The position numbers and the translations under genes are program-made. A model generated the notes under the pieces. It made no database searches and was not told the origin of the DNA. It saw only the letters and a list, made by a program, of their open reading frames with translations. Positions 1,294 to 2,618 of a DNA stretch of 64,000 bases are shown here, piece by piece. How positions within the stretch are numbered: the first letter of the stretch is position 1; each line of letters opens with the position of its first letter. The stretch is from a virus (Duplodnaviria; Heunggongvirae; Uroviricota; Caudoviricetes). The DNA is taken from the IMG/VR virus record IMGVR_UViG_2880389630_000005, one strand, 5' to 3'.

Positions 1294-1448
1294 ATGGCGA
1301 CAAACGCGCTGTAATCGGCTGTGACGGCATAAACGCCTCACGGATGAGGCATAACAGCACCGCGCCCCATAAATGCCGTCAGAATCGTTTTTAAAAGGGT
1401 TTTAAAAACGGTTTTATTTCCCTTTTTATCCTTTCGCGTTATGGCAGG

Positions 1449-2618
1449 GTGCTGAACACCCTCCACAGTACCCCGGCTTCCCCTTCCGTCATCATGCCGC
1501 GTATGAAACTGAAAATTGCGGCGTTAAGCCTCGAAATTACTAAAGCAACCCACAGCGAAATCCAGCTGTTACCGGCAGGCGAGTTCAGCGCGGTGGATGG
1601 TCGCCCACATACCGATGAAGTCGAAAGCGGTAAATGGGTGCTGACTGCCGAACTGGCCGCGCAGCTTGTCGCACAGGTGGCCGCCCGCGCCACGCCTTTT
1701 GTCATTGATTACGAACATCAGACGCTGCGCGCCGTAAACAACGGCAAGCCCGCCCCGGCGGCGGGCTGGTTCAGCCAGGTGGAATGGCGTGAAGGTTCGG
1801 GCTTGTATGCCACCGGTGTGGAGTGGACGGAGAACGCGGCGGCCATGATTGCCGCCGGTGAGTACAAATTTATTTCCCCGGTATTTGGATACAACCGGCG
1901 CGGCGAAGTCATTGAACTGTTACACGCCGCACTGACCAATACCCCGGCGCTGGACGGTATGGACGCGGTCATGCTGGCTGCGGCCAGCCGTCTGGCGAGT
2001 CTGTCAACTGAAACGGAGACCACAACAGTGGATGAAGAACTGTTAAACGATTTGCTGTCCAGTCTGCGCTGGATGCTTAACCTCCCGGTTACCTCAACGG
2101 CGGAAGATATCAAAAACGAGCTGCAAAAGGTCGTTGACATGATTTCGAACGGTCAGGGAACGGCGGCGGCATCCGTCAGCCTGCTGGCCCTGCTGAATCA
2201 GAAAGATGAGCAAATCGCCAGCCTGTCAGCCAGTGCCTATGACCCGTCAAAACACATTTCCCTTGCTGCCTTCGAAGAACTTCAGGGGCGTTATGCCGCA
2301 CTGGCGCAACAGTCCGGTGAGGCCGAAGCCGGGACACTGATTCAGGCGGCGCTGTCTGACGGGCGACTGCTTCCGGCACAGGAAGACTGGGCGAAAGATT
2401 ACGCCAGCCGCGATATCAACGGCTTTAAGTCCTGGCTGGAGAACGCACCGAAACTTGTTGCGCTCAGTCAGACACAGACCGGCGGCAAAGCCCCCAAAAC
2501 GCCGTCGCCTGCCCCGGCGCAGATTAAAACCGGCGATGACGTCGATGTCGATATCGCCATTTGTTCAATGATGGGCGTCGATCCAGAGGATGTCGCCCGT
2601 TACGCAGGAGATGAGTAA
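1449..2618 (+). CDS. Mu I-like prohead protease/scaffold protein
   Basis: 389 aa; resembles Mu-like prophage I protein family; lies between G-like and major head genes; true start may be the internal Met near 1494. Confidence 0.6.
   Translation: MLNTLHSTPASPSVIMPRMKLKIAALSLEITKATHSEIQLLPAGEFSAVDGRPHTDEVESGKWVLTAELAAQLVAQVAARATPFVIDYEHQTLRAVNNGKPAPAAGWFSQVEWREGSGLYATGVEWTENAAAMIAAGEYKFISPVFGYNRRGEVIELLHAALTNTPALDGMDAVMLAAASRLASLSTETETTTVDEELLNDLLSSLRWMLNLPVTSTAEDIKNELQKVVDMISNGQGTAAASVSLLALLNQKDEQIASLSASAYDPSKHISLAAFEELQGRYAALAQQSGEAEAGTLIQAALSDGRLLPAQEDWAKDYASRDINGFKSWLENAPKLVALSQTQTGGKAPKTPSPAPAQIKTGDDVDVDIAICSMMGVDPEDVARYAGDE

Follow-up and report, generated by a model that had tools for sequence, protein, structure and literature searches.

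A conserved box upstream of three putative activator-dependent late promoters in a Mu-like prophage of Escherichia coli

Results

A repeated 15-mer in the gaps of the late region

The stretch of DNA considered here (the window) comprises 64,000 nucleotides of a tailed-phage record, IMGVR_UViG_2880389630_000005 (Caudoviricetes), and is identical in sequence to the chromosome of Escherichia coli S13 (NZ_CP107117.1). It contains a transposable Mu-like prophage, and our subject is a 15-bp sequence, GTGCTGAACACCCTC, that stands in front of late genes of this prophage and that probably forms the core of an upstream promoter box. As annotated in S13, the prophage has a repressor, a Ner-like gene, transposase A, the B ATPase and GemA, the remainder comprising one Mor-family gene, holins, endolysin, terminase, portal, F, G, I and T, and the tail and baseplate genes. 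It is present in 58 of 5,426 complete E. coli genomes, including that of the enteropathogenic E. coli (EPEC) strain E2348/69 (98% identity). A megablast search with the first 20 kb of the window returned no close relative among deposited phages; relatives were taken from E. coli genomes, from IMG/VR and from representative genomes. Positions outside the window are given on the 48-kb S13 prophage locus (L001), in which 43290-44300 corresponds to approximately 18015-19025 of the window.

The late genes that matter here all lie on the + strand. The homologue of the virion morphogenesis gene G (742-1293; Pfam PF05069, 91.5 bits, and annotated as such in S13) is the terminal gene of the upstream operon for lysis, packaging and head formation, and is followed, after a gap of 209 bp (1294-1502), by the Mu-like protease/scaffold gene I (1503-2618; PF10123, 333 bits), for which the Prokaryotic Genome Annotation Pipeline (PGAP) chose the same ATG in both S13 and E2348/69. 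Farther downstream, the homologue of the baseplate spike gene gp45 (12720-13373; PF06890 and the S13 annotation) ends with a stop codon at 13371-13373 and is the last gene before the second copy of the motif; its start according to PGAP is at 12723, 3 nt downstream of 12720. The homologue of the baseplate wedge gene gp46 (13427-13777; PF07409), which has the same start in PGAP, comes next.

Exact matches to GTGCTGAACACCCTC occur at just two places on the + strand of the window: The first (1449-1463) is inside the G-I gap, before the I ATG at 1503, and the second (13374-13388) begins one base past the gp45 stop, 39 nt ahead of the gp46 ATG at 13427. An earlier interpretation, made from the letters of the window alone and referred to below as the sequence-only reading, had given the first position correctly and had put the second at 13375-13389, which is off by one. 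Exact repetition is, by itself, at chance level, in that the window contains six maximal direct repeats of at least 15 nt and that shuffled windows yield about two identical 15-mer pairs, with a maximum of eight. It is the placement of the copies that is informative. Only 320 of the 17,791 bases in the late region (20-17810), or 1.8%, are intergenic, and the only gaps longer than 15 bp are those at 1294-1502 and 13374-13426, each of which holds one copy. Since the late region has no other gap of appreciable size, we regard this distribution as non-random.

Outside the window, a third copy with two mismatches lies at L001 18566-18580, in the gap upstream of the holin gene and 6.7 kb to the left of the window. 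When up to three mismatches are allowed, the whole prophage contains seven matches, as against 1.05 expected, a number reached in none of 100 shuffles. The two upstream sites named in the sequence-only reading are both confirmed, and the full set numbers three, the lysis site lying beyond the window. That reading had also described GGGTG/CACCC dyad symmetry flanking the first copy. The dyad exists (1447-1451 and 1457-1461), but its right arm is within the 15-mer and does not flank it; the second copy retains only GTG/CAC of this symmetry, which is not conserved among relatives.

A conserved box at three positions

We assembled 79 loci around gpT homologues from IMG/VR, placed G, I, gp45 and gp46 in them by tblastn, and made a 28-nt position weight matrix (PWM) from the sites of the relatives, among which the consensus is CCACTGAACCCCTTCAnCTGA. 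A homologous box precedes I in all relatives, and the box is present in both the G-I and the gp45-gp46 gaps even where the G and I proteins are only 46-59% identical to those of this prophage. Within the 48-kb prophage locus, matches scoring at least 12 were confined to three sites on the + strand, plus one weak match on the minus strand, whereas the shuffled locus gave 0.18 matches. The box at the predicted I promoter (P_I; GGGTGCTGAACACCCTCCACAGTACCCC, 1447-1474, + strand) scores 26.8 and contains the 15-mer at 1449-1463 and CTGAAC at 1452-1457; that at the predicted gp46 promoter (P46; AAGTGCTGAACACCCTCACCTGATTCTG, 13372-13399, + strand) scores 30.2 and contains the 15-mer at 13374-13388 and CTGAAC at 13377-13382; and that at the predicted lysis promoter (P_lys; L001 18564-18591, + strand) is situated outside the window, in the gap before the holin gene.

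The same preference for strand and position extends to the relatives: Over 1.29 Mb of related loci, 121 of 122 matches scoring at least 15 are on the coding strand at these three positions (47 at I, 43 at gp46 and 31 at lysis). The sequence-only reading had pointed to related Mu-like phages with the same operon structure as a place where the motif might prove absent; in such relatives, the box is kept at the same three places. Across the 16 distinct sequences of the E. coli clade, the P_I box varies at 2 of its 28 positions, with more variation in the adjoining sequence and in the initial 90 nt of the gap, and the boxes in E2348/69 are identical. Throughout the family, the symmetry takes the form TGAA-N4-TTCA, its centre lying some 31.5 bp ahead of the hexamer described below; in this prophage it is weak.

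The minus-strand match (16647-16674; score 18.5) is within the tail-fibre open reading frame (ORF), and because it has neither a -10 signature (A2/T6, see below) at +38 nor a gene start downstream, we judge it to be due to chance. A 27-bp inverted repeat, GGGTRCTG-N11-CAGYACCC, which is found at P_I and P_lys, was considered as the defining symmetry and rejected: It is limited to the E. coli clade and is absent at P46, and in viral contigs the number of matches estimated for it, among the matches listed, is of the order that chance would produce for a self-complementary 16-base pattern.

Fixed spacing to a -10-like hexamer

Counting 38 nt on from the C of CTGAAC, one reaches a hexamer that, over 80 distinct segments with a box, has an A at its second position (A2) in 79 and a T at its sixth (T6) in 78; no other positions of the sigma-70 -10 element are as well conserved as these two. 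In the prophage, the corresponding hexamers are CATCAT at P_I (1490-1495, + strand), CAGACT at P46 (13415-13420, + strand) and, at the same 38-nt spacing, TACCCT at P_lys (+ strand, outside the window). The distance to -10-like elements, a feature that the sequence-only reading had singled out for inspection, proves to be fixed at the sites in the window and in relatives alike. Counted from the predicted transcript start, the centre of the box would fall at about -43.5, like the C sites of Mu.

A consensus scan found no two-hexamer sigma-70 promoter with a -35 element at either P_I or P46, the best -35 candidates by eye being CAGTAC at P_I (one of six matches) and CTGATT at P46 (three of six). 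No terminator-like site was detected in 1250-1560 or in 13250-13500, and no Rfam family in positions 1-20000 of the window. A sigma-70-like sequence of the conventional form, TTGATG-16-TAAAAT, occurs at 13291-13318, inside the end of gp45, as a single match where 0.2 would be expected in shuffles.

Box type and activator clade

Directly upstream of P_lys lies a gene of the Mor/C family (L001 17772-18239; PF08765, 29.1 bits against a cutoff of 24.9), whose product is annotated as Mor family in the S13 and E2348/69 records (as E2348C_RS14205 in the latter) and shares with Mu C an FLGG..FYIP linker and little else. A small ORF between this gene and P_lys occurs within the E. coli clade in variants of 45% identity, the boxes being unchanged, and because such variants arise without a change in the box, the small ORF is not the specificity factor. 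Ahead of the activator gene itself (L001 17680-17770) there is a terminator-like hairpin, complete with T run, followed by what is, as judged by eye, a sigma-70-like TGTACA-16-TATAAT; no box precedes the gene.

We scanned viral contigs for lysis-type promoters, defined as the box plus ATACTGAC at the right spacing, and recovered 44 loci, in 40 of which an orthologue of the activator is encoded no more than 2.5 kb upstream; the gap from activator gene to box ranges from 299 to 552 bp over 33 distinct cases. Among deposited phages, the closest activators belong to Klebsiella phage ST405-OXA48phi1.1 (41% identity), Pseudomonas VW-6B, Mannheimia 3927AP2, Haemophilus SuMu and D3112-like phages. The Klebsiella phage has all three boxes. 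SuMu has a box of its own, GTGTGGAAG-N3-CTTCC, at lysis, I and gp46, the centre of which is 31.5 bp ahead of TAAAGT, TATTCT and TATCCT, respectively, and in VW-6B the box, GTGACGAACCCCGTC, is found before lysis and I, where the hexamers at +38 are CATACT and TACAGT. A genome scan with the activator alignment turned up relatives across many Enterobacterales, with boxes and hexamers at lysis and I.

The activator tree has two clades. Clade B contains the activator of this prophage, a Tenebrionibacter protein and the second activator of the prophages in Xenorhabdus, Photorhabdus and Morganella, and is paired with TGCTGAAC boxes; its sister, clade A, contains the activators from the Klebsiella phage, Kosakonia, Pectobacterium, Serratia and others, and is paired with CACTGAAC boxes. 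All 33 of the distinct activators that adjoin lysis boxes of the CACTGAAC type belong to clade A. The prophage at locus L032, whose boxes are of the TGCTGAAC type, encodes an activator fragment that is 56% identical to the activator of this prophage and was left out of the tree.

The prophages of Xenorhabdus, Photorhabdus and Morganella have two Mor-family genes in tandem (L269 8922-10459, L270 8905-10450, and L272 and L273 8934-10456). Between the two genes, about 100 bp before the one of clade B, there is a CACTGAAC box with an AATACT hexamer, and TGCTGAAC boxes are found at lysis and I, an arrangement that looks like a Mor-to-C-type cascade. Computationally, this arrangement makes the strongest case that the box would be read by a Mor-family protein.

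Start codons and a hairpin at P46

In this prophage and in nearly all relatives, the hexamer is separated from the I ATG by 7 nt and from the gp46 start codon by 6 nt. All 30 distinct segments with the 7-nt spacing are I promoters, and in three further I promoters the spacing is 6 nt. Neither start has a visible Shine-Dalgarno sequence ahead of it. Because a normal distance from the -10 element would put the 5' end at the ATG, or 1 nt before it, the transcripts are predicted to be leaderless, and judging from the position of the -10 hexamer we give about even odds that the P_I and P46 mRNAs lack a leader, that of I possibly having one of 1 nt. Weighing against this prediction, gp46 starts with GTG in some relatives, and E. 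coli initiates poorly at GTG on leaderless mRNA.

At P46, the hexamer and the start codon are both contained in a potential hairpin, TCCATGCTGCCA-gac-TGGCGGCATGGA (13405-13431, + strand): The loop and the upper part of the stem take in the hexamer, and the 3' arm takes in the gp46 start codon. Minimum free energies of the 44-nt segments are between -18 and -26 kcal/mol in most relatives. Over 19 sequences, the pairing is retained in 92% of cells, as against 24-42% in slid controls; five pairs have changed on both sides (e.g., ATG to GTG together with CAT to CAC), and the one-sided changes all yield G-U pairs on the sense strand. The sequence downstream is ACCAGACG, and the structure does not qualify as an intrinsic terminator, i.e., a GC-rich hairpin plus a T run. 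Because RNA that is initiated at the ATG would not include the 5' arm, this hairpin would be possible only on read-through RNA.

In relatives, the predicted start regions of lysis or middle promoters are situated inside terminator-like hairpins (L269 ~9950-9995; L266 ~9012-9050; L021 ~290-325), and a T run follows such hairpins in VW-6B and Xenorhabdus. At these sites, read-through RNA would terminate, and RNA initiated at the promoter would be without the 5' arm. A tentative generalization, to which we assign clearly less than an even chance, is that late promoters in this group of phages may sit in hairpins such that what becomes of a transcript depends on where it began: Read-through RNA would fold, either ending transcription or burying the start codon, and promoter-initiated RNA would be translated in leaderless or near-leaderless form. 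If true, the expression of I, and of the genes from gp46 to the tail fibre, would be strictly dependent on the activator, in translation as well as in transcription.

Other features of the prophage

The G-I gap also contains an AT-rich element, CGTTTTTAAAAGGGTTTTAAAAACGG (1386-1411), that is kept in all relatives and is separate from the promoter box. In the Mu record, the annotated gyrase cut site is likewise in the G-I gap, adjoining similar TTTTTTAAAA / TTTTTAAA runs, and by analogy the element may be the counterpart of the strong gyrase site of Mu. A DNA methyltransferase gene (L001 20886-21626, outside the window) is part of the late lysis and packaging operon and has no box of its own, and no equivalent of the Mu Pmom promoter was found when the 48-kb prophage locus was scanned with the box PWM.

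In S13, the prophage splits a gene for a TonB-dependent receptor (approximately 18015-19025 of the window, and L001 6487-7470), and in E2348/69 it splits eutC; different insertion genes are consistent with random transposition. The tail-fibre ORF (15432-17810, 792 aa) is single in the window and is divided by PGAP in S13 into two pieces, one of them marked as partial. The tail-fibre region of E2348/69 differs, having oppositely oriented tail-fibre and assembly genes that are reminiscent of the G segment of Mu.

Discussion

The best account of these observations is that the 15-mer is the core of an upstream box of about 24-28 bp at three activator-dependent late promoters, and that this box is most likely bound by the prophage's own Mor/C-family protein; we put the probability of this account at roughly 85%. 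The proposal in the sequence-only reading, that the copies may be activator sites for late promoters, is supported by comparative evidence, namely the position and strand of the sites, their geometry, the presence of a Mor/C-family gene and the co-variation of box and activator, from which we infer binding, activation and the points at which transcription would start. Under such a mechanism, the single Mor/C-family protein would bind each box at about -54 to -31, with its centre at about -43, and would stand in for the missing -35 contact, recruiting sigma-70 RNA polymerase to a weak -10 hexamer that begins, without exception at the three sites, 38 nt past the C of CTGAAC. The outcome would be the late, coordinated transcription of the genes for lysis and packaging, for head and tail, and for the baseplate wedge and tail fibre.

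Several points weigh against this account. The -10 hexamers of the prophage (CATCAT, CAGACT and TACCCT) are poor; the family dyad is degenerate at its three boxes, reading TGAA..TCCA, ..CTCA and ..CCCA; and P46 matches P_I and P_lys over the left 17 nt only. The resemblance between the I and gp46 boxes, which is greater within one phage (20.25 of 28 positions) than between phages (17.6 of 28) and in itself speaks for the account, has a permutation p value (~1e-4) that is inflated because the phages are related. What links box type to activator clade is correlative and comes from a few independent clades. Finally, two loci (L271 and L282) have a related activator and no box; because both are also without the G-I gene arrangement, they are uninformative on this question.

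Among other explanations, the one that survives best, although we consider it unlikely, is that the site is conserved for some other DNA-binding protein of the phage or host, or as a sequence at which modules recombine. Mosaic boundaries do occur at the sites: The ORF between activator and holin is 45% or 99% identical where the holin is ~100% identical, and I is 81-99% identical, as opposed to 96-99% for G. The tie to the Mor-family protein is, moreover, only correlative. Yet the small ORF between the activator gene and P_lys changes without any change in the box, and the type of box follows the activator clade, even in the phages that have two activators. A linker for recombination would, furthermore, require neither strand specificity nor a fixed -10 geometry, and any recombination at conserved promoters may well come about as a by-product.

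Less probable by some way is a role for the element as a hairpin in RNA or DNA, GGGTG-CTGAA-CACCC, such as a terminator or processing signal at the ends of operons, in place of a role as a protein-binding promoter box. A 5-bp stem can form in the first copy and in most copies from lysis sites, and both copies in the window are just past the end of a gene. Against this, the stem is reduced to 3 bp in the second copy, the family consensus (CCACTGAACCCCTTC) contains no such stem, and the absence of any detected terminator-like site in 1250-1560 or 13250-13500 is accompanied by conservation of the sequence and not of the pairing. The 38-nt spacing to a hexamer with A2 and T6 is, in addition, a property of promoters.

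That the two copies are a functionless repeat can be given next to no weight: Repeats of this length are indeed common, as both the window and its shuffles attest, but this would not account for a pair that occupies just the two sizeable late-region gaps, for the recurrence of the box at the same three places in phages with flanking proteins of 46-59% identity, or for the third copy upstream of the lysis genes, which, along with the PWM matches in relatives and the fixed geometry of the hexamer, refutes it. Equally negligible is the notion that the first copy encodes an N-terminal extension of I from a GTG at 1449, since, even though the ORF 1449-2618 is uninterrupted and shares the frame of the ATG at 1503, relatives have an in-frame stop inside the box (CTG AAC CCC TTC ATC TGA), homology to I and the PGAP start both begin at 1503, and the sequence recurs in two non-coding gaps.

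Because elements of this kind are to be expected in a Mu-like phage, the existence of activator-dependent late promoters is useful but not surprising; the sequence and layout of the box, in turn, are not found described for this group of phages. A full-text literature search with the box sequences, covering open-access text only, returned unrelated papers only (e.g., on Zika virus and other eukaryotic work), and the paper on the SuMu genome nowhere mentions promoters. Activator-dependent promoters of the kind proposed would define a late regulon for a group of Mu-like prophages across the Enterobacterales, including the prophage of EPEC E2348/69 and Klebsiella phage ST405-OXA48phi1.1. The TGCTGAAC, CACTGAAC, GTGTGGAAG and GTGACGAAC boxes, each going with a different clade of activators, would furnish natural specificity pairs for the Mor/C family, whose DNA recognition has so far been studied mainly in Mu. 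In practical terms, the box offers a simple marker for the annotation of late operons and for induction reporters, and the combination of leaderless late mRNAs with hairpins embedded in promoters is an idea that can be tested.

The predicted leaderless messages have a precedent in the lambda cI mRNA from PRM, which is a leaderless phage mRNA: As in that case, transcription is predicted here to begin with the A of the start codon, upstream of which there is no visible Shine-Dalgarno sequence. Unlike the lambda example, the leaderless state is predicted here from the -10 position only, some relatives begin gp46 with GTG, and at P46 a hairpin would cover the start codon on read-through RNA. A second parallel is the Mu Pm promoter and the cascade from Mor to C, to which the Xenorhabdus, Photorhabdus and Morganella prophages correspond in having one type of box before the second activator gene and the other type at the late genes; the single activator gene of the S13 prophage differs in lying behind a terminator and an ordinary sigma-70-like promoter and not behind a box.

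The closest comparison is with the late promoters of Mu itself, of which there are four, with -10 hexamers and without -35 hexamers (PMC2582627). There, the binding site of C is an imperfect dyad of 16 bp with its centre at -43.5, the region from -52 to -34 being required (PMC2582627). We took the geometry of Mu from Pmom, Plys and that study, in that the -10 hexamers of PI and PP could not be placed with certainty from sequence. In Mu Pmom, the TTAT half-site begins 38 nt before the -10 hexamer TAAGAT, which equals the distance from CTGAAC to the hexamer in the present prophage, and because these distances are equal, the centre of TGAA-N4-TTCA coincides with that of TTAT-N6-ATAA.

Both phages are transposable, and the late promoters predicted here resemble those of Mu in being several, before the lysis, head (gene I) and tail genes, and in having a -10 element, no usable -35 element and a box over the -35 region whose centre is about 31.5 bp before the -10 (here predicted to fall at -43.5); in both, a small protein of the Mor/C family is encoded just upstream of the lysis genes. 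The differences concern sequence and detail. The box, TGCTGAAC.CCC.TC, is unrelated to the TTAT-N6-ATAA of Mu: The Mu genome has no match to the box PWM scoring at least 12 (the maximum, 10.8, being at unrelated places), and the late promoter regions of Mu have no similarity to the box. The activator is a distant relative of C (BLASTP E = 6e-05 over 21 residues) with two insertions, and is single where Mu has the pair of Mor and C. The putative third promoter is between gp45 and gp46, which overlap in Mu, and not before P (gp44), and the start codons are 6-7 nt from the -10 element. To judge from these correspondences, the element would work like a C site of Mu, although by sequence it is not a C site.

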